From: an uncultured Gammaproteobacteria bacterium | Lineage (GTDB): Bacteria > Patescibacteriota > Microgenomatia > Levybacterales > UBA12049 | Reading direction: 5' to 3' | DNA: 64,000 bases | Assembly (NCBI GenBank): GCA_964564035.1 | Contig: CAZLZN010000005.1 | Span: 1,504-65,503 of the forward strand | Shown here: positions 7,431 to 15,203 of the stretch, in pieces | Layout of the letters: the number at the start of each line of letters is the position of its first letter | Position numbering within the stretch: position 1 is the stretch's first letter | Translations under genes and position numbers: made by a program | Notes under the pieces: generated by a model | What the model saw: the letters and a program-made list of their open reading frames with translations, nothing else | Told to the model about the DNA's origin: nothing | Databases searched by the model: none

Positions 7431-8495
7431 TTATTTATTATTATTCTCGTGGAATGTGTTTACAAAATTGACCAGTGCGTCACTATTTGTGCCTATTTCT
7501 AGAATAAAATTAGCCTTATGCTTTTTGTTATGTTGTAATATATCCAAAAAATATTTATCTATTCTGTTTATAATCACCCCTGCTGCTCCGCGGGCTTGCG
7601 CTACCTCCCTCTTGGAAGCGTGCACAGCTAAAGCCTTGCGCGCTTTATTAACTACATAAATATCTTCAAAGCTTTTGTTAGAATCTGCGCCAAAAGGTGA
7701 TACTCTTTGATATGCAAATTCGTAAAGCATTTCAGTATGGCCGTCTTTGTATTTTATAAAATCTACTAAATACCTCATCGATGCCGGATGGCCCTTATAA
7801 GCGTCCGGTGCATTATCTGCGGGAAGCGGCGGGATAAATTCTTGCCATACGAACTTGGGGTCAACAGCAGGAATCTCTGATTCTAAATGATCAGGCCTCC
7901 CGAAGGCTTTTATTTTTTCACCACGCTTACCAAACACCGGTTTTAAAAGCCAGATTCCGCTCGCTGGAAATGTGTCAGTTTTATCATAATCCCTAACCGC
8001 GGGTCTTAGGCTTTTTGGAACCAAAAAAGCATGATACGCTTTATTATTAATCACTTCTTCCAAATCCAGAGCATTTGGTATTGCTGTAGCCATCAGCGGC
8101 ATTTTGGTATCAATACTTACAGCTCTTATAAAATTATAAAGCAGTGCCAAAAGTTCCAGGTCGTTTGGGTCATAGCCGTCTGATGTATGATTAATTACCT
8201 CCGTTCTACTCTCATTAAGCGCTTCTATTGATTTTATTTTATCGCTCGATATCATTGCGCGTATGCTGGCTAAGGTTTTTTGTGATCTCTCTATATAGGC
8301 ATCAGTTATACTTGCCGCTCCTCTTATACCCGAATTGTGCCCGTTTGTTTCGACGCATGAAATTTTTCTCCTGCCTTGTTTATTTTTATAAAAAATAAAA
8401 TCAAAACCTATCGAAGCGCGAAATCGCTCGTCCTCAGGGGATCTCCTGTTCGGATACCATTTATCCATAGCTACTCTAAATCTGTCAGTTTCCAT
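7431..8495 (-). CDS. Hypothetical protein, possibly ATP-grasp-like
   Basis: GIWLLKPVFGKRGEKI, WQEFIP, MRYLVDF and FILEIGTN loosely resemble ATP-grasp strands. The start is chosen at METDRF (8495) because a TATAAT sits 7 nt upstream. Confidence 0.35.
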   Translation of the reverse strand: METDRFRVAMDKWYPNRRSPEDERFRASIGFDFIFYKNKQGRRKISCVETNGHNSGIRGAASITDAYIERSQKTLASIRAMISSDKIKSIEALNESRTEVINHTSDGYDPNDLELLALLYNFIRAVSIDTKMPLMATAIPNALDLEEVINNKAYHAFLVPKSLRPAVRDYDKTDTFPASGIWLLKPVFGKRGEKIKAFGRPDHLESEIPAVDPKFVWQEFIPPLPADNAPDAYKGHPASMRYLVDFIKYKDGHTEMLYEFAYQRVSPFGADSNKSFEDIYVVNKARKALAVHASKREVAQARGAAGVIINRIDKYFLDILQHNKKHKANFILEIGTNSDALVNFVNTFHENNNK

Positions 8496-8617
8496 TCTTT
8501 TAATTATATACTGCCTTATAGTAAATATCAATTGAACTTTATTCCCTTTTTGAGAAGAACATACCTATTCTATATATAGTATAGGTATATTTTTGTGTGG
8601 ACTAACTATGCAGTCAA

Positions 8618-9217
8618 TTAGCGATTGTAGGGCAATCTTGGACGGAATTCTCCGGGACTACCTGCTACAGGCTCAGGACCTGGTCGATATGCCGGTGGTG
8701 TGAAACGCCCCGCCGGCAATGATGAACTATAAGCAAACAACTCTTCCAATGCTCGAGCGTAGCCTATTTCCCTAACCCTTGTACTACACTCATCAACTCT
8801 ATTCTTAATTTTCATTTGAATTTCATCATCGAGATTATTTGCTAAATCGGTAAGGCTTCTTCTTGTTTTAAGATCTGAAATATCTTTCCAAATAATTTCA
8901 CGCGTTATCTGGCAAGCTTTAAATACCTGTCTTGCAATTTTATTCTGAAAATCCAAATCAGGACTTCTAACTCCGTATATTACGGAAACAGCTATAGATG
9001 TATCTTTCATTTCGGTTAATAGACCCTGCCTTATAAGGCCAAGATCTACTCTTAATCGTCTTTTAGGAGATAGAGATTTATGGGCTTTTAGTTCATCCCC
9101 CTCCGGGTCAGCATATGCAAATGCCGGAATTTGGGCCTCCAAAGCATTAAAGCGATCAGCCCGGGTTCTTAACCTGGGTTCTGCTTTATTTTCCTTGTCA
9201 TGAAATCTTTCTACCAT
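8618..9217 (-). CDS. Hypothetical protein with a Pro-rich C-terminus
   Basis: 199-aa ORF with an extended -10 (TGCTATAAT) 6 nt upstream of its ATG. Confidence 0.5.
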   Translation of the reverse strand: MVERFHDKENKAEPRLRTRADRFNALEAQIPAFAYADPEGDELKAHKSLSPKRRLRVDLGLIRQGLLTEMKDTSIAVSVIYGVRSPDLDFQNKIARQVFKACQITREIIWKDISDLKTRRSLTDLANNLDDEIQMKIKNRVDECSTRVREIGYARALEELFAYSSSLPAGRFTPPAYRPGPEPVAGSPGEFRPRLPYNR

Positions 9218-9232
9218 ACAATTATTATAGCA

Positions 9233-9472
9233 TTATCTACTCAAGATACAAGCATGTGTAAGCGTTACGGACATTTTAGACATTTCATAGTTTGAAATAA
9301 GATAGTCCATCGGTGTGATTTTCCCGAGAGACTTGTGTATCTTCTGCGTTAAATAGAATATCAAGTATTCTAACAGATTATTATTAAACTGTACGGGGTC
9401 ATGGATGATATCAAGTTTGTTGTTTAAAAATTGATCTTGAAGGGTAAAAATACACCCAGGGGGTGTATTAGG
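9233..9472 (-). pseudogene. Remnant of a DDE (rve-type) integrase/transposase, C-terminal about 70 codons only
   Basis: An open frame with no usable start reads ...LQDQFLNNKLDIIHDPVQFNNNLLEYLIFYLTQKIHKSLGKITPMDYLISNYE...*. YLTQKIHKSLGKITP matches the Y-N-x-x-R-P-H-x-x-L-G-x-x-T-P end of rve domains. The frame is interrupted at the REP hairpin. Confidence 0.5.
9451..9467. repeat. REP-like palindrome a: TACACCC-AGG-GGGTGTA
   Basis: 7-bp inverted repeat read directly, lying 59 nt upstream of the RayT gene. Confidence 0.8.
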
Positions 9473-9525
9473 TTAGACACATAGGGAAAATCCTGATAAT
9501 ATTAGTTAAATACTAATTTAAATTT

Positions 9526-10203
9526 ATGCCTGCACGCTTAGAGCCTCTTATAACAGGAGAAATATATCATGTTTGTAATAGAGGAATTAATCACAAGCCA
9601 ACATTTATAAAAATCCGAGAATACAAACGCGCTTTACAGTTGATTAATTACTACCGCTTTCAAAATCCCCCTGTTAGGTTATCTAAATTCCTACTATTGT
9701 CAAAAGACTTACGAGAACAGATTATGAATGAATTGCAAAAATCCGATAATAGGAGTATTGATATCTATTCCTATTGTTTGATGCCCAATCATGTTCATTT
9801 TTTGATAAAACAGCTTCGAGATAATGGAATATCCAAATTTATGGGGCAATTTTTTAATGGTTATGTTAAGTATTTTAATATATTAAATAAAACGGAGGGC
9901 CCGCTCTTTCTTGATCAGTTTAAGGCTGTAAGAATAATTACAGACGAACAGCTCTTGCACGTATCCAGATATATTCATCTAAATCCGTACACAGCATTTA
10001 TAACTAGAAAAATTGAAGATCTTCAATACTATCAATGGTCTTCGTTTCCTGAGTATATAGGGATACAAGATCCTGGAATATGTCAAAAAGATCCAATACT
10101 ATCATTTTTTAAAAATAAAGATGACTATAAAAAATTTATTTTTGATAATGCAGATTACCAAAGAGTAATTGGAAAAATTAAACACCTGACTCTTGAAGAT
10201 TAA
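9526..10203 (+). CDS. REP-associated tyrosine transposase (RayT, IS200-like Y1 HuH transposase)
   Basis: HuH motif MPNHVHFLI and catalytic Tyr region VSRYIHLNPY. The 225-aa length fits, and the gene is flanked by palindromic REP-like hairpins. Confidence 0.85.
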   Translation: MPARLEPLITGEIYHVCNRGINHKPTFIKIREYKRALQLINYYRFQNPPVRLSKFLLLSKDLREQIMNELQKSDNRSIDIYSYCLMPNHVHFLIKQLRDNGISKFMGQFFNGYVKYFNILNKTEGPLFLDQFKAVRIITDEQLLHVSRYIHLNPYTAFITRKIEDLQYYQWSSFPEYIGIQDPGICQKDPILSFFKNKDDYKKFIFDNADYQRVIGKIKHLTLED

Positions 10204-10219
10204 TCCCCGGGCGTCCTAC

Positions 10220-10243
10220 TTAATACACCCCCCGGGTGTACTT
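10220..10243. repeat. REP-like palindrome b: TTAATACACCCCCCGGGTGTACTT
   Basis: Identical over 24 nt to the copy at 11998-12021. It begins 17 nt after the RayT stop. Confidence 0.85.
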
Positions 10244-10439
10244 ACTCTCTCGGCCGTAGTCATAGCGCTAAATTACGACAAAGTCCTGCAATCAAAACTC
10301 CTCGATGCATTCCCGTCTTATGCAGTTTTTATCACAGATCTGGAGAGCAACCCCGCAGTTTTAGATCACCTCCAAAAACTCAAATAAATCTTGAAATACA
10401 CACATCATTGAAGCAAGTTCATATGATATAATTTTTTGA

Positions 10440-10781
10440 ATGATAATTACAAAAACTTCCCCGTTCACCAAAGAAGAAATAGCGATGTTATCCGAGGTGT
10501 TTGAAGTTTACATCAAAACAGTAATTGATATTGAAAAAAGGATTTGTTCTGCAGGCTGTGATAGGCATTTTGAATCGGAAAAAATTTTACTTGAGCAAAA
10601 TTCTGCGCAAAAAGATTTATGGGGCGGTGGAATCGATTTAGAAACGAAAATTATCGATTTTAATTCATTTATAAATATACGCCCAATTGATAATAATACA
10701 AGTAATGAAATTCAAGACGCGATTATTAGGGCAAAATATGAAGATTTAACCAGATATTTTTTTAGAGTACTATATGAATAG
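10440..10781 (+). CDS. Hypothetical protein (113 aa)
   Basis: TATAAT 7 nt upstream of the ATG. The gene overlaps the next ORF by 8 nt. Confidence 0.5.
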   Translation: MIITKTSPFTKEEIAMLSEVFEVYIKTVIDIEKRICSAGCDRHFESEKILLEQNSAQKDLWGGGIDLETKIIDFNSFINIRPIDNNTSNEIQDAIIRAKYEDLTRYFFRVLYE

Positions 10782-11046
10782 CGAAAAAATTATATTATCT
10801 TCACTTGCACTTGATTTGAAGCGGGTTGCGCAAGGGTATGCTCGTGGTTCCAACAATATGGCGGTAAGATTTTTAGACGAAGCATTAAGACGAAAATCTG
10901 AAGCGATGACACTTGACTTAAAGCCATATTTAAAATCCCTTCTTAAAAAAGTCGGGGAATTGAAAAATATAAATGATTTAAATCGCAGAGCAGAAGACGC
11001 ACTGATGTACAGTACGCTTTTCCAAAACGCCTCACTTGTAATATAA
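10774..11046 (+). CDS. Hypothetical protein (90 aa)
   Basis: Translationally coupled to the previous ORF through the ATGAATAG overlap. Confidence 0.45.
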   Translation: MNSEKIILSSLALDLKRVAQGYARGSNNMAVRFLDEALRRKSEAMTLDLKPYLKSLLKKVGELKNINDLNRRAEDALMYSTLFQNASLVI

Positions 11047-11091
11047 GCAAACCAAACACTATATTTTTAATATTTTTTTCTCTTTATCTAT

Positions 11092-11107
11092 TACACCTCC
11101 GGGTGTA
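11092..11107. repeat. REP-like palindrome c: TACACC-TCCG-GGTGTA
   Basis: Read directly, 46 nt after the stop of ORF 10774-11046. Confidence 0.75.
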
Positions 11108-11202
11108 CTCCAACTATATTTTAGGCAACAAGTGTAGATTAATTATTATTTACACTCAAGTAATCGAGGATGAATTCCCCCCAGATTTGAAAGGTTACTG
11201 GC

Positions 11203-11598
11203 TTATGATTTTAAGTCTCTTGAAGGATATTCATTCGGACGAGGCATTCTCGGCATAAAAGGCTCGCTCGGCCTGAAGCACGCTGTATGTATGATAAATT
11301 TGTTATTTCTTTCTTCTCTGAACACAACAACCGGTGCGCCATTGCACTCATCTAGCTTTTTATTTGTAACATAACCAACTTCGCCATTGATATTAGTTCC
11401 ATAATTTCCGATATCCAACCCTTTTTTAAGTCCATATGAACCTGCTGCCACGGCCAGGACTAAACCTAATACACCGACTGTTATCGCGGGATATGGTGAT
11501 ATAACTACCTCCCTTTCACCGGAATTATTATCATTATTATTTCCTGCACCAATCCTTTTACGTTCTACAGATCTCATAACAATATATATTATATACAT
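11203..11598 (-). CDS. Small single-pass membrane protein, hypothetical
   Basis: One hydrophobic helix, AITVGVLGLVLAVAAGSYGL. The start may instead be the Met at 11577. Confidence 0.45.
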   Translation of the reverse strand: MYIIYIVMRSVERKRIGAGNNNDNNSGEREVVISPYPAITVGVLGLVLAVAAGSYGLKKGLDIGNYGTNINGEVGYVTNKKLDECNGAPVVVFREERNNKFIIHTACFRPSEPFMPRMPRPNEYPSRDLKS

Positions 11599-11702
11599 AT
11601 ATTAAATACTGTCAACATTATATGAATGGATAATGCTCATAATAAGGGGGCTAATTATTTGGATACAAGCGTGCGAAGATAAAATCCCCCCCAGGGTGAA
11701 AT

Positions 11703-11882
11703 TTAATTATTGACTATTTCTCTATTTACCTCGACTATTTTACCTTTTTGTTCTTCATGTAACGATAAGCCTTCTTTTAAATGTTTTTCTCTTGCTGACC
11801 TCACAGCATATTGCATAGCTGAGTTTAGTTTAGTAATAAATTCCTTCGATCCAAAATTTTTTATACGCTCTTGGTTCGGCAT
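11703..11882 (-). CDS. Small hypothetical protein (about 59 aa)
   Basis: Internal ATG (MPNQERIKNF...) of track ORF 11703-11936. No motif recognised. Confidence 0.3.
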   Translation of the reverse strand: MPNQERIKNFGSKEFITKLNSAMQYAVRSAREKHLKEGLSLHEEQKGKIVEVNREIVNN

Positions 11883-11997
11883 AATTAATACTCTCTGGTT
11901 GTAATTATAAACTCCGCATCTCATTATACTTGACAAAATACGAACATAATTAATTTGTACGCAACAAGTCAGGTAGCGATATGAATTTACTCTAAGA

Positions 11998-12021
11998 TTA
12001 ATACACCCCCCGGGTGTACTT
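11998..12021. repeat. REP-like palindrome d: TTAATACACCCCCCGGGTGTACTT
   Basis: Identical to 10220-10243. It sits 8 nt from the rarA stop. Confidence 0.85.
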
Positions 12022-12028
12022 TTTTCAC

Positions 12029-13303
12029 CTATCTTAAATACTTCCTCCCATTCAACTTCTCCGGCAAATTTGAAAGTCCTTTTTCGACTCCGACTTCACC
12101 CTCTTTCCAACTATACCCCTTCGCATAGCCTAAATTTTTCATCAGCTTTGTCGGAGCATTTCTTAGATGCATCGGTACCGGCTCGTTCGGAAAATTCAAT
12201 ACATCCTCTCTCGCCCTTGCATACGCATCGTAAGAGCCCCTGTCCTTCTTCGCCTTAGACAAATACACAACCCCATGCGCCAGATTGATAGCGCACTCAG
12301 GATACCCGATCGTCTCCACTGCCCGGAATACCTCATTTGCCACAACCAAAGCGGTCGGTTGAGCCATGCCGATATCCTCAGACGCAAAAATCACCATCCG
12401 CCGCGCGATAAACTTTGGATCTTCCCCTCCTTCAACCATCCTTGCGAGATAATACAACGCAGCATCCGCGTCGGAGGCCCGCATCGACTTTATAAACGCA
12501 CTGATTATATTGTAATGCTCGTCTGCTTTTTTATCATACAGACTTGTAGATTTCGTCTGGAAAATATCAATTATCGTAGTCTCTTGAATTATTTTCTTAC
12601 TTGATTGCTGCGCGGCGATTTCTAGCGCGTTTAGCATGACTCGCGCGTCTCCTCCGGAAAGCCTGATCAAAATCTCCTCCGCCTCAGGTGCGATAGTCTT
12701 CTTTGAAGACCCTAGCCCTCTTTTTTTGTCAGTTAAAGCTATATTGATCACATTTTTCATATGCTCGATACTTAATCCCTGCAGTACAAAAACGCGGCAT
12801 CTCGACAAAAGCGCCCCGATCACCTCAAACGACGGATTCTCGGTCGTTGCGCCGATCAAGGTAATTAATCCGCTCTCGACATAAGGCAGTAGAGCATCTT
12901 GCTGGGCTTTGTTCCATCTGTGAATTTCATCAATAAATAGAATTGTAGGCTTAGGCTTTTGTACTTGTGGCTTATTATTGAGCAGTTTATATTTTTCGGC
13001 TTCTTTAATTACGTTTCTCAGATCATCTTTGCCGCTTGTGACACCCGAAAGTTGGAAAAAATTGGCCTCGGACTCTTTGGCTATAATATGCGCGAGTGTA
13101 GTTTTGCCCGTTCCCGGCGGTCCCCAGAAAATGATCGAAAAAATATTGCCGGACTCGATCATCTGTCTCAGAACCTTCCCCTTCCCCACCAGATGCTCCT
13201 GTCCGATAAACTCATCAATTGTTTGCGGTCTTAGCCGGCTTGCGAGGTTCATATCAGCCCAATTGTAACACAACCCGGTTGGAGTATACTTAGCTTCATT
13301 CAA
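12029..13303 (-). CDS. rarA: Replication-associated recombination protein A (AAA+ ATPase RarA/MgsA)
   Basis: Walker A GPPGTGKTTLA, Walker B ILFIDEIHRWNK, ATTENPSFEV, and a C-terminal MgsA helical domain (ADEHYNIISAFIKSMRASDADAALYYL). Confidence 0.95.
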   Translation of the reverse strand: MNEAKYTPTGLCYNWADMNLASRLRPQTIDEFIGQEHLVGKGKVLRQMIESGNIFSIIFWGPPGTGKTTLAHIIAKESEANFFQLSGVTSGKDDLRNVIKEAEKYKLLNNKPQVQKPKPTILFIDEIHRWNKAQQDALLPYVESGLITLIGATTENPSFEVIGALLSRCRVFVLQGLSIEHMKNVINIALTDKKRGLGSSKKTIAPEAEEILIRLSGGDARVMLNALEIAAQQSSKKIIQETTIIDIFQTKSTSLYDKKADEHYNIISAFIKSMRASDADAALYYLARMVEGGEDPKFIARRMVIFASEDIGMAQPTALVVANEVFRAVETIGYPECAINLAHGVVYLSKAKKDRGSYDAYARAREDVLNFPNEPVPMHLRNAPTKLMKNLGYAKGYSWKEGEVGVEKGLSNLPEKLNGRKYLR

Positions 13304-13511
13304 ACTCTTGCATAATTCTTACGCATACTTAATCTTAACCTAACCACATCAATATATATTCAAATATAACATTATGATAAAAAATAACTATTTAACAAAG
13401 ACACTAAGAATCCTCGCCATTCCCTCGGCAATTATGCTGACTGTTGCTTTTGAATTCGCTGCATTACACTTAATCGGTATTATAAATTCTATATGAAAGG
13501 AGGTGAGTAAT

Positions 13512-13679
13512 TTGAGTAGAGATAGTGGATATGGTTTTTTACTGGGAGTTATTTTACTTATAATTTTTGCAGCCATACTAATTATTTATGGTCTTCCGCT
13601 CTTGCAAAACGCAGGAAGCGCTAATCAGGTAAATATTCCTGACAAGGTCGATGTGAATGTCAATCAGCCTAAACAATAA
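13512..13679 (+). CDS. Unlisted small membrane protein (55 aa, TTG start)
   Basis: A strong SD (GAAAGGAGGTGA) lies 6 nt before the TTG. The translation is [55 protein letters not shown]. Confidence 0.45.
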
Positions 13680-13706
13680 AATACCAAATTCGTACGAGTT
13701 ATGCAG

Positions 13707-14396
13707 TTAGCTTATTAAAAGCAAAGCATTTTCAATTGCAAATCTCGTGTTGATATTCGTATTCTTCAACTGGCTTCGAAGTGACTGGAAAACATTTATT
13801 TTTTCAATCAGTTCGTACCCGGTCTGCCCGGGAATACTCTCGCGAAGAAGCATGTCGCGAAGCTTCAAAATCACACATTCGGCCCATACTGTCGCTCTGT
13901 CCTTGTCTTTTGCCAGATTTTCGGCATATTTCAGCACACCGCTTACAGGCATATCGTCTATCCGCCCCAAAAACTTTTGCGCCTCAATCATGATATCCTC
14001 ATCATATTTTTGAATTTCTTTGTCTAACAAAATCACGCTACATCGCGATGTTATTGTCGGTATAAACACATCACTGCTGTCCGAGCTCAAAATGATAACA
14101 GTCCGGTCCGGCGGCTCCTCGAGTACTTTTAAGAGCGAATTTTGCGCCTGAACAGTCAGCATCTGGGCATCCTCAATTATCACAGCTTTCATCTGGCTCT
14201 TAATAGGCATCAGGAATATTTTTTTCTGAATATTTTTAATATCCTCGATCCCGATACTGTTTACATTTTGTTTTATAGAATTTTCTTTTTCGATAACAGT
14301 TAGATCAAATTTGTCGATATTATACTCCGCGCATATTTTCTCAATAAATTCGCCGCGCTTAATTTTATCCTTGGATACCACTATTTGAGATAACAT
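13707..14396 (-). CDS. holB: DNA polymerase III delta-prime subunit-like protein
   Basis: AQNSLLKVLEEPPDRTVIILSS...IPTITSRC is the clamp-loader sensor/SRC motif region. Confidence 0.8.
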   Translation of the reverse strand: MLSQIVVSKDKIKRGEFIEKICAEYNIDKFDLTVIEKENSIKQNVNSIGIEDIKNIQKKIFLMPIKSQMKAVIIEDAQMLTVQAQNSLLKVLEEPPDRTVIILSSDSSDVFIPTITSRCSVILLDKEIQKYDEDIMIEAQKFLGRIDDMPVSGVLKYAENLAKDKDRATVWAECVILKLRDMLLRESIPGQTGYELIEKINVFQSLRSQLKNTNINTRFAIENALLLIS

Positions 14397-14402
14397 GCGC
14401 TT

Positions 14403-14441
14403 AGTATAAAATATTCATCGGTAATATAAAAGTGCTATAAT
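14403..14441. promoter_or_regulatory. Divergent back-to-back -10 boxes for holB and the ProB-like gene
   Basis: On the minus strand, TATACT (14408-14403) lies 6 nt before ATG 14396. On the plus strand, TGcTATAAT (14433-14441) lies 9 nt before ATG 14451. Confidence 0.5.
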
Positions 14442-14450
14442 ATCAACCCT

Positions 14451-15203
14451 ATGAGAAGCGTAGAGCAAAAACCATGGATGGTAGTCAAAATCGGCAGTCA
14501 TACAATTACCGATGAAAAAAATCAGCTGAACACCGGTTTCATGAACGAAATAGCCCGGCAAGTAGCCGAAAACACAACATGGAGACATGTTATTGTGTCA
14601 TCGGGGGCAGTTGCCGCAGGAATACCATCTGTTGAAAATTTTGATCAGAATGATGTCGTATCTAAACAAATAGCAGTAGCATTCGGACAGCCCCGGCTTA
14701 TGAGAGGGTGGAAAGACGCATTTAGGAATTATGATATACCGGTAGCCCAGTTTTTATTTACAAGAAAAAATTTGGATAGACATATGCCGGTACTTAGAGC
14801 TATTAATAGAGGAATAGTAGTAGCCAACGGCGATGACACGGCATATTCTCCCAAAGAGGAAGAGGATATTCTTATAAAAGATAACGACGATCTTGCCGAA
14901 GAAATTGCGTTAAGGCTTCCCGCTAAAAAAGTACTCTATTTATCGGCAGCCGGGGGCTTAAAGGATAAATATGGGAAAATTATCCCTGAGGTAAATACGG
15001 AGGATGATCTGTCCGGGCAGTTAGTATTTGACGGTAAAACATTAAACGGTACAGGCGGGATGGAATCGAAGCATAATTTTTCTTTTGATATGGCGAGTAA
15101 AGGCATTACGGTATATATTGCCGGAGGGGATGTCTCTGACGTCGTTTTGAAAGCCGCCCGAGGCGAAAACCCCGGAACGCATTACGTCGCAAAAAAACTA
15201 TAA
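14451..15203 (+). CDS. Glutamate 5-kinase-like amino-acid kinase (ProB family, no PUA domain)
   Basis: VVKIGSHTIT, VIVSSGAVAAG, DNDDLAEEIA and GTGGMESK follow the ProB pattern. Confidence 0.7.
   Translation: MRSVEQKPWMVVKIGSHTITDEKNQLNTGFMNEIARQVAENTTWRHVIVSSGAVAAGIPSVENFDQNDVVSKQIAVAFGQPRLMRGWKDAFRNYDIPVAQFLFTRKNLDRHMPVLRAINRGIVVANGDDTAYSPKEEEDILIKDNDDLAEEIALRLPAKKVLYLSAAGGLKDKYGKIIPEVNTEDDLSGQLVFDGKTLNGTGGMESKHNFSFDMASKGITVYIAGGDVSDVVLKAARGENPGTHYVAKKL

Follow-up and report, generated by a model that had tools for sequence, protein, structure and literature searches.

A RayT-like HUH/Y1 gene between hairpin-bearing terminal inverted repeats: a probable REPtron/TIRtron-type unit in a CPR-type genome

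The RayT/REP pair, in which repetitive extragenic palindromes (REPs) accompany the enzyme, is the most familiar example of a transposase that was domesticated and now maintains a population of short repeats of its own; to our knowledge, nearly all studies of it concern Proteobacteria with large genomes. Very small genomes of the candidate phyla radiation (CPR) type usually lose non-essential genes. Within contig CAZLZN010000005.1, a stretch of 64,000 nucleotides (hereafter the window) carries a Y1 transposase-like gene at positions 9526-10203 surrounded by four TACACC…GGTGTA palindromes, an arrangement that the original prediction described as classic RayT/REP. What kind of system is this, and what ties the palindromes to the gene? 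Our analysis indicates that the locus is probably a REPtron/TIRtron-type unit built around a domesticated HUH/Y1 endonuclease acting on single-stranded DNA (ssDNA), belonging to the RayT-like TnpAY1 class 2. The intact Y1 gene fills the space between two terminal inverted repeats (TIRs) of about 40 nt, and two solo hairpins lie in the next downstream gaps. The layout of gene plus matching hairpins recurs across a large CPR clade (Microgenomates-type) and appears to extend to hundreds of related genomes, the MgsA-holB neighbourhood is kept over deep divergence, and the hairpin stems change together with the protein, both from locus to locus and between paralogs.

The elements of the unit, with the means by which each was recognised, are the following:

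9526..10203, + strand: intact HUH/Y1 gene, RayT-like, 225 aa (Pfam, NCBIfam, fold)
9447..9492, + strand: TIR-L, composed of hairpin AATACACCC-AGG-GGGTGTATT at 9449-9469, spacer AGGTTA and box GACACATAGGG at 9476-9486 (covariance model R1, alignment)
9451-9467: hairpin copy 1, TACACCCAGGGGGTGTA, core of TIR-L
10199..10244, - strand: TIR-R, composed of box complement CCCCGGGCGTC at 10204-10214, spacer CTACTTAA and hairpin at 10224-10240 (R1, alignment)
10224-10240: hairpin copy 2, TACACCCCCCGGGTGTA (TACACCC-CCC-GGGTGTA), core of TIR-R
11092-11107, no strand assigned: solo hairpin copy 3, TACACCTCCGGGTGTA (TACACC-TCCG-GGTGTA), between convergent open reading frames (ORFs) (pattern match)
11977..12022, - strand: solo hairpin copy 4, core at 12002-12018, TACACCCCCCGGGTGTA (R1, 43 bits; alignment)
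9474..9502, + strand: promoter-like site of the Y1 gene, -35 TAGACA, 17 nt, TG-extended -10 TAATAT (consensus scan)
11685..11698, no strand assigned: doubtful relic, TCCCCCCCAGGGTGA, closer to the box complement CCCYRGGTGWC than to the hairpin

The Y1 protein and the repeats that bracket its gene

Both motifs on which the original prediction had relied, …CLMPNHVHFLI… and …SRYIHLNPY…, are read in the translation of ORF 9526-10203. They hold the HuH motif NHVH (H89, H91) and the catalytic Tyr motif YIHLNP (Y149), and a WSS triplet follows at residues 171-173. H89, H91, Y149 and W171-S172-S173 are invariant across 30 aligned homologs, in which conservation extends over the full length. Pfam searches at E ≤ 0.01 returned Y1_Tnp alone (PF01797, 31.2 bits against a cut-off of 23, residues 72-151), with no C-terminal helix-turn-helix (HTH) domain of the Bac_DnaA_C, HTH_23 or HTH_28 types. 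The C-terminal ~70 aa are helical in the AlphaFold2 model of the protein (predicted local distance difference test score, pLDDT, 89.3) and conserved in the 30 homologs.

The placement of the protein with RayT/TnpA-REP rather than with the TnpA proteins of IS200/IS605 insertion sequences (ISs) was borne out by profile and fold comparisons. REP_Tyr_transpos (NF047646) was the sole NCBIfam match at E ≤ 0.01 (7.4e-12, 45.4 bits) and performed far better than transpos_IS200, which gave E = 0.13 and 12.5 bits against a cut-off of 55. All 30 homologs likewise match REP_Tyr_transpos (best E = 2.9e-15), none of them reaching its cut-off, and their best value with transpos_IS200 is 0.0016. When the model was compared with the Protein Data Bank (PDB) using Foldseek, the top match was 4ER8_A, E. 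coli TnpA-REP with a REP hairpin (E = 1.9e-7; template modelling score, normalised to the target, 0.66). The IS608, ISDra2 and IS200 TnpA structures also matched, the IS200/IS605 TnpAs at about 3e-4 (2VJV and 2XM3 among the neighbours). A PDB sequence search with the single protein found nothing relevant, and a search with the family profile gave marginal ISDra2 matches (E = 0.02) without reaching 4ER8; thus, the link to TnpA-REP comes from the NCBIfam profile and the fold comparison.

The motif YIHLNP fits the class-2 catalytic signature Y---NP defined by Quentin et al. (PMC6006769). Within that class, the key features given for subclass 2.1 are NHVH or NH[YF]H, Y[IV]HLNP, SS in the proximal tail and a median length of ~238 aa (PMC6006769, table 1), and the Y1 protein has NHVH (family consensus NHFH), YIHLNP, WSS and 225 aa. 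Quentin et al. 2018 equate subclass 2.1 with the Group-1 RAYTs of Bertels (PMC5581495) and, probably, with the TIRYTs of Di Nocera (PMC6006769). Judged by motif comparison, the Y1 protein would therefore be nearest to TnpAY1 subclass 2.1, that is, to Group-1 RAYTs or TIRYTs. The word "classic" in the original prediction cannot be retained, as the protein misses the RayT cut-off (45 against 80 bits) and its motifs fit 2.1/TIRYT and not the RayT subclasses of E. coli and Pseudomonas (PMC6006769, table 1).

All four palindromes were found exactly where they had been reported, each matching the pattern. Against 0.00-0.02 expected from dinucleotide-preserving shuffles, four copies are far above chance. 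Their local clustering was also confirmed, since all lie within 2.6 kb and none occurs in the remaining 61 kb; scans for perfect hairpins, with three mismatches allowed and with a covariance model agree that the window holds no other complete copy. Listing every perfect hairpin with a stem of at least 7 bp across the window revealed no further member and no second hairpin family, and the 3-mismatch search added two matches only, both at chance level. The covariance model R1, which was built from the repeat and run on the 64-kb window and on related loci, assigned 59.8 bits to copy 1 (+), 58.7 bits to copy 2 (-) and 43 bits to copy 4 (-). Copy 3 obtained only 9.6 bits and is the weakest member, a bare 6-bp stem with no flanking box (DNA fold -4.5 kcal/mol, z = -3.2); nothing further in the 64 kb scored. 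An Rfam scan of positions 8500-13000 gave zero matches. A search of the GTDB species-representative genomes, a set that excludes the source genome, with the 20-mer TAATACACCCCCYGGGTGTA returned one chance match, in a Cytophagales metagenome-assembled genome.

The R1 hits disclosed an orientation that had previously been missed: copy 1 is oriented opposite to copies 2 and 4, and the latter two have in common an identical 24-mer, TTAATACACCCCCCGGGTGTACTT, in the same orientation. Copy 4 sits 10 nt past the MgsA stop codon and keeps the hairpin and a few flanking bases, its box part not being conserved; its counterpart at the equivalent position in the related locus L012 (13240-13285) is a complete TIR. 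The half-copy proposed at 11685-11698 is present as a sequence, but neither the mismatch search nor R1 supports it and its fold is unremarkable (z = -1.1), so that it is at best a decayed relic.

Copies 1 and 2 also extend, unnoticed until now, into the ~40-nt TIRs, as revealed by alignment with the repeats of two relatives (L012, L014). When copies 2 and 4 are reverse-complemented and aligned with copy 1 and these two relatives, a hairpin, a spacer TATYAGGTTG and a box GACACCYAGGG, more loosely GACACNYAGGG, emerge, the hairpin stems within the window TIRs measuring 7-9 bp. The box is a second copy of the left arm and loop of the hairpin, about 25 nt away (TACACCCAGGG and GACACATAGGG). TIR-L has a DNA fold energy of -8.2 kcal/mol (z = -2.3), TIR-R begins right at the Y1 stop codon, and the hairpins lie 57 nt before the ATG and 21 nt after the stop. 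Consequently, the description of all four copies as REP-like hairpins needs revision, two of them being the ends of 40-nt terminal inverted repeats.

The site at 9474..9502 presumably functions as the promoter of the Y1 gene, and its -35 element, TAGACA, falls inside the TIR-L box. The arrangement of hairpin, TTGACA box, 17 nt and TAnnnT is kept in 18 aligned upstream regions. Because copy 1 lies upstream of this promoter, it is unlikely to be part of the Y1 transcript; and since the left box contains the -35 element, binding of the Y1 protein may autoregulate the gene. Most relatives in the 18-locus upstream alignment have a -10-like box ~8-12 nt before the ATG and no visible Shine-Dalgarno sequence, which suggests that the mRNAs of this family are leaderless or near-leaderless.

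Recurrence of gene and hairpins across the family

More than 2,600 homologs of the Y1 protein were found at 50-76% identity. Nearly all are 222-227 aa long (best 120 of the more than 2,600), and the hosts named among the matches listed are Levy-, Gottesman-, Roizman- and Blackburnbacteria. In a library clustered at 50% identity, 1,100 clusters matched at E ≤ 1e-30 and 13,047 at E ≤ 1e-10.

From 80 metagenomic loci and further contigs (L numbers), 76 Y1 genes could be tested for flanking hairpins. Matching hairpins flanked 46 of them (61%), against 11 of 394 control ORFs of the same loci; the specific tie between hairpins and Y1 gene that had been proposed thus holds both in the window and across the family. 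Their median distance is 45 nt from the ATG on the upstream side and 33 nt from the stop on the downstream side. The 46 loci display 26 distinct inner 5-mer stems, and in 18 independently aligned upstream regions compensatory changes were observed at three of the five inner base pairs. Two paralogs in L047, 3 kb apart (7434-8072 on the + strand and 10946-11590 on the - strand) and 45% identical, have hairpins of their own, CACCT-TAA-AGGTG for one and CACCT-TCC-AGGTG for the other, with MgsA ~1 kb further on.

The inverted orientation recurs as well. R1 matched 16 times in 729 kb of related loci, the matches falling in seven loci and lying on the + strand before the Y1 gene or on the - strand after it; two of the 16 are extra downstream copies on the - strand (L012, L017). 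In L012, L014, L015, L017, L110 and L118, where R1 reaches both sides of the gene, the upstream repeat is on the + strand and the downstream repeat on the - strand every time. The ~40-nt TIR was recovered by alignment in the window, L012 and L014, and with R1 also in L015, L017, L110 and L118. L013 contains in addition a miniature, gene-less inverted-repeat pair ~150 nt downstream of its Y1 gene.

Third copies are of the right-end type, downstream and in direct orientation, at +1.8 kb in the window, +2.5 kb in L012, +9.6 kb in L017, +1 kb in L050 and +79 nt in L040. Two relatives go beyond this number. L071 has six copies in 9.4 kb, and in L054 (1-16044), whose Y1 protein is 40% identical, TTCCAC-TTCGTAG-GTGGAA occurs at least 19 times within 16 kb, always in the same orientation and sometimes as doublets spaced by 44 nt; longer duplicated segments are present there as well. 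The L054 copies sit between PIN toxin genes and small upstream partner ORFs, which form VapBC-like pairs; two of these partners match DUF2281 or RHH. Therefore, REP-like amplification does occur in the Y1 family, in relatives such as these.

Inheritance, neighbours and competing explanations

The gene is single-copy in the 64-kb window and, when the locus was compared across relatives, proved syntenically stable, as RayTs are. The exact protein occurs in the same context on the 10 contigs listed from different sequencing runs (16 read); two further exact proteins, P0072 and P0079, have one context each among the contigs listed (11 and 7 read). L012 (Y1 protein 76% identical) and L013 (61%) keep the order Y1 ... 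MgsA(-) holB(-), L013 also with proB(+), while MgsA is 67-71% and holB 46-48% identical to the window proteins. Among 33 relatives with enough flanking sequence, holB lies within ~6 kb of Y1 in seven. Homologs are spread smoothly over 50-76% identity, and no near-identical copy turned up elsewhere. Carriage by phages was rejected, as no relatives were present among 2.9 million viral contigs (IMG/VR). Single copy and MgsA-holB synteny together indicate that the gene behaves like a domesticated one rather than like an active IS, and single copy with stable inheritance is the pattern given for RAYTs, not ISs (PMC5581495). More distant homologs occupy other contexts (murG|Y1|ftsW in L014, next to ruvC in L110 and L118), so that movement over long time scales may have occurred.

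Y1 genes recur near replication and recombination genes, in the window (12029-15203) and in L012, L013, L017, L024, L025, L036, L037, L047, L110 and L118; MgsA/RarA is nearby in three relatives, and two further lineages have RuvC either directly beside the gene or two genes off. Simple inheritance of gene order could account for this proximity, or it may hint at a role linked to the replication fork. We also considered whether the Y1 unit had inverted at the same site between L110 and L118 and dismissed this: their two 120-aa neighbours are unrelated, and the only common feature is the proximity of RuvC.

By analogy with TnpA-REP and with the TnpAs of IS608 and ISDra2, the Y1 protein would recognise the hairpin in ssDNA, for instance in the lagging-strand template, and would cut and rejoin the strand beside it by means of an HUH-bound metal and Tyr149. 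Such an interaction would keep protein and hairpin co-evolving and would now and then deposit new repeat copies, for the most part a few kb downstream; large numbers of them would be rare.

Several observations weigh against a REPtron/TIRtron-type unit of this kind. Binding, cleavage and copying are all attributed to the Y1 protein by analogy. The protein scores 45.4 bits with the NCBIfam RayT equivalog, whose cut-off is 80. A GT[AG]G foot accompanies only two of 92 flanking hairpins, on either foot, the window copies being flanked by AAAA/TTAA and CTT; lacking this defining foot, the hairpins are not canonical REPs. Most relatives have only the flanking pair within ±10 kb, and the other 61 kb of the window contain no hairpin copy, a wider dispersed REP population thus being unproven. 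Quentin et al. saw no REP-like sequences around subclass 2.1 genes (PMC6006769). In L013 (~7995-8030) the hairpin has decayed while the inverted repeat and an internal direct repeat (TACGTAGGG twice) persist, and therefore the hairpin may not be the sole recognised feature. Finally, the inner 5 bp of the 18 upstream regions are 98.9% paired, but the survey picked loci with perfect stems and such percentages are inflated; the contrast with control ORFs is unaffected.

Two stretches next to the unit bear on the alternatives:

9233..9473, - strand: open frame similar to the C-terminal end of rve (DDE) transposases (rve_3 E = 0.041, rve_2 E = 0.084, both sub-threshold)
10241..12001, no strand assigned: interval between the direct repeats copy 2 and copy 4, with four small ORFs (ORF list, Pfam)
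10440-10781, + strand: DUF5674 ORF, 113 aa (Pfam)
10774-11046, + strand: 90-aa ORF, overlapping the DUF5674 ORF
11203-11598, - strand: 124/131-aa ORF
11703-11936, - strand: 77-aa ORF

The left-hand frame comprises 80 codons, ends ...HKSLGKITPMDYL... and stops against TIR-L. Ten Logan contigs listed with the Y1 gene, all from other samples, start at exactly 9353, and Logan contigs with the left-hand neighbour end at ~9284-9286 or ~9385 (breaks 9353-9388). We examined the 9353 break as a possible boundary of a mobile element and rejected it, given that it coincides with the rve-like remnant ~100 nt left of TIR-L and that a second break exists at ~9285. The breaks probably reflect a repeated IS fragment, and not the end of the Y1 unit, or else a strain-variable junction.

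On the right, the interval between Y1 and MgsA has wholly different content in the window, in L012 (cellulase and lactamase_B) and in L013 (four other genes), both sides being syntenic. The four window cargo genes are absent from all 80+ Y1 loci. DUF5674 and the 90-aa ORF form a two-gene module with 73-83% identity over more than 3,000 CPR proteins (the named matches include Daviesbacteria), more conserved than MgsA. A perfect sigma-70 consensus, TTGACA-16-TATAAT, precedes the 131-aa ORF at 11588-11615 (-); its -10 is located 3' of the first ATG, and translation therefore probably begins at the Met seven codons further on, giving the 124 aa called on contigs L002-L004 and implying another leaderless start. 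The G+C content of positions 8001-12000 is 0.345-0.363, against a window average of ~0.40, and GC skew is negative throughout the window.

The locus could instead be an ordinary autonomous IS200-type IS, an ~800-bp unit (9447-10244) moving by peel-and-paste, the extra hairpins being scars or solo ends. The closeness of the hairpin ends to the gene, 57 nt from the ATG on one side and immediately behind the stop on the other, would suit such an element, as would the distant homologs in unrelated contexts (murG/ftsW in L014, ruvC in L110/L118), the transposase-like remnant abutting TIR-L and the nearby assembly breaks. The protein, however, argues otherwise, with an IS200 profile score of 12.5 against 55 bits, the motif Y---NP in place of Y---Q and a fold closer to TnpA-REP; moreover, the ends are inverted repeats and not same-strand left and right ends (LE/RE). 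The gene occurs once in the window and keeps a single context on the 10 contigs listed (16 read), its position by MgsA-holB is stable though holB is only 46-48% identical, and neither near-identical copies in the 50-76% homolog series nor relatives in viral contigs were detected. An autonomous IS is accordingly unlikely in our judgement. Very improbable, in turn, is an origin of the palindromes as ordinary regulatory or termination signals (operator, insulator or intrinsic terminator) with no Y1 catalysis. Every copy is intergenic, copy 4 has a T-run behind it and was called terminator-like, the TIR-L box overlaps the -35 element, and REPs of other bacteria also act on transcripts (PMC3733652). 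Yet the motif occurs nowhere else in 61 kb of gene-dense sequence; copy 1 lies upstream of the Y1 promoter and is untranscribed from it; copies 2 and 3 have no T-run, and Rfam gave no match. The same 40-nt sequence is inverted around the gene and changes in step with the protein across loci and paralogs.

The variable interval prompts a further alternative, in which the hairpin repeats would be single-strand recombination sites at which the domesticated Y1 enzyme inserts or swaps modules directly downstream, making the Y1-MgsA interval a cassette-like hotspot and the HUH counterpart of an integron. In the window (identical 24-mer) and in L012 (two 41-nt copies), unrelated cargo is enclosed by right-end repeats in direct orientation, a pattern that at first suggested cassette capture at the hairpins. 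L017, L040 and L050 likewise carry their extra copies downstream of the gene and directly oriented, and in L054 hairpins stand between successive VapBC-like pairs. Were this so, 10241-12001 and L054-like arrays would be HUH-driven cassette platforms, integron-like but run by another class of enzyme, and reduced CPR genomes would keep them as a means of exchanging accessory genes. Against it, the conserved DUF5674 and 90-aa module is intact in L105, L107 and L109 in differing contexts, with no such hairpins and no Y1 gene, and capture of that module at the hairpins was rejected. REPs elsewhere accumulate after genes without moving those genes, neither circles nor empty sites lend support, and loci with a third copy are few and partly non-independent. 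We regard cassette capture as improbable, and a REPtron/TIRtron-type unit around a domesticated enzyme as the reading that the data favour.

Relation to known systems and significance

A large clade of proteins, mostly of 222-227 aa, appears to carry RayT/REP-type logic in very small CPR-type genomes, and in a minimal form: a single gene with two 40-nt repeats and a few additional hairpins. It provides a compact system in which to ask what subclass-2.1/TIRYT enzymes recognise, whether they cut DNA and why they are kept. Hairpin repeats do accompany a 2.1-like clade, whereas earlier complete-genome surveys had not found any. We found no literature linking TIRYTs or RAYTs with CPR bacteria, although such work may exist elsewhere.

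The E. coli TnpA-REP/REPtron provides the best structural match (4ER8) and has the same Y---NP motif, a single-copy gene, inverted cognate hairpins flanking it, extra copies nearby and co-evolution of protein and hairpin. Identity to 4ER8 in the structural alignment is nonetheless ~14%, and the score stays below the RayT cut-off. The hairpins described here are short and perfect, with neither a bulge nor the 5' GT[AG]G guide, and number four in this window, all within 2.6 kb, in contrast to the hundreds of dispersed copies in E. coli.

The TnpAs of IS200/IS605 elements (IS608, ISDra2, IS200) share the HUH/Y1 core fold and a compact gene between short subterminal hairpins, and the same ssDNA chemistry would be expected by analogy. 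They differ in having Y---Q where the Y1 protein has Y---NP and in lacking its ~70-aa C-terminal extension, and the IS200 profile gives the protein 12.5 bits. The ends are inverted here, compared with the same-strand LE/RE of IS608, and the gene is single-copy and syntenic, with no tnpB partner. Integron attC arrays offer a functional analogy only: folded ssDNA hairpin sites part small modules, including the toxin-antitoxin pairs of L054, near the gene of a breaking-rejoining enzyme. That enzyme is a tyrosine recombinase in integrons and of the HUH/Y1 type here, and the sites measure 17-40 nt against 57-141 nt for attC; no support for cassette mobility was found, and one test, with the DUF5674 module, was negative.

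The closest likeness is to TIRYTs and subclass 2.1. As in the TIRYT/TIRtron described by Di Nocera et al. 2013 (PMC3733652), copy number is low and the gene is flanked by TIRs, which in some cases are partly self-complementary and occasionally form small repeat families. The protein agrees with subclass 2.1 in NH[VF]H, Y[IV]HLNP, the SS after the catalytic helix and a length of ~225-238 aa. Among the differences, the typical C-terminal HTH was undetected by Pfam in the Y1 protein, and the TIR motif GGGGWSAS is matched at only 6 of 8 positions in the window (GGGGTGTA). Quentin et al. reported no REP-like hairpins, while covarying hairpins accompany 61% of the loci here, with at least 19 copies at one of them. 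The hosts, too, are small-genome CPR bacteria outside the complete-genome sample of Quentin et al., who found non-IS tnpAY1 genes mainly in larger genomes (PMC6006769). In summary, the system seems to work like a REPtron and, as far as motifs and inverted repeats indicate, is closest to TIRYT/subclass 2.1, the locus being related to the known RayT/REP and TIRYT systems in a largely expected way.

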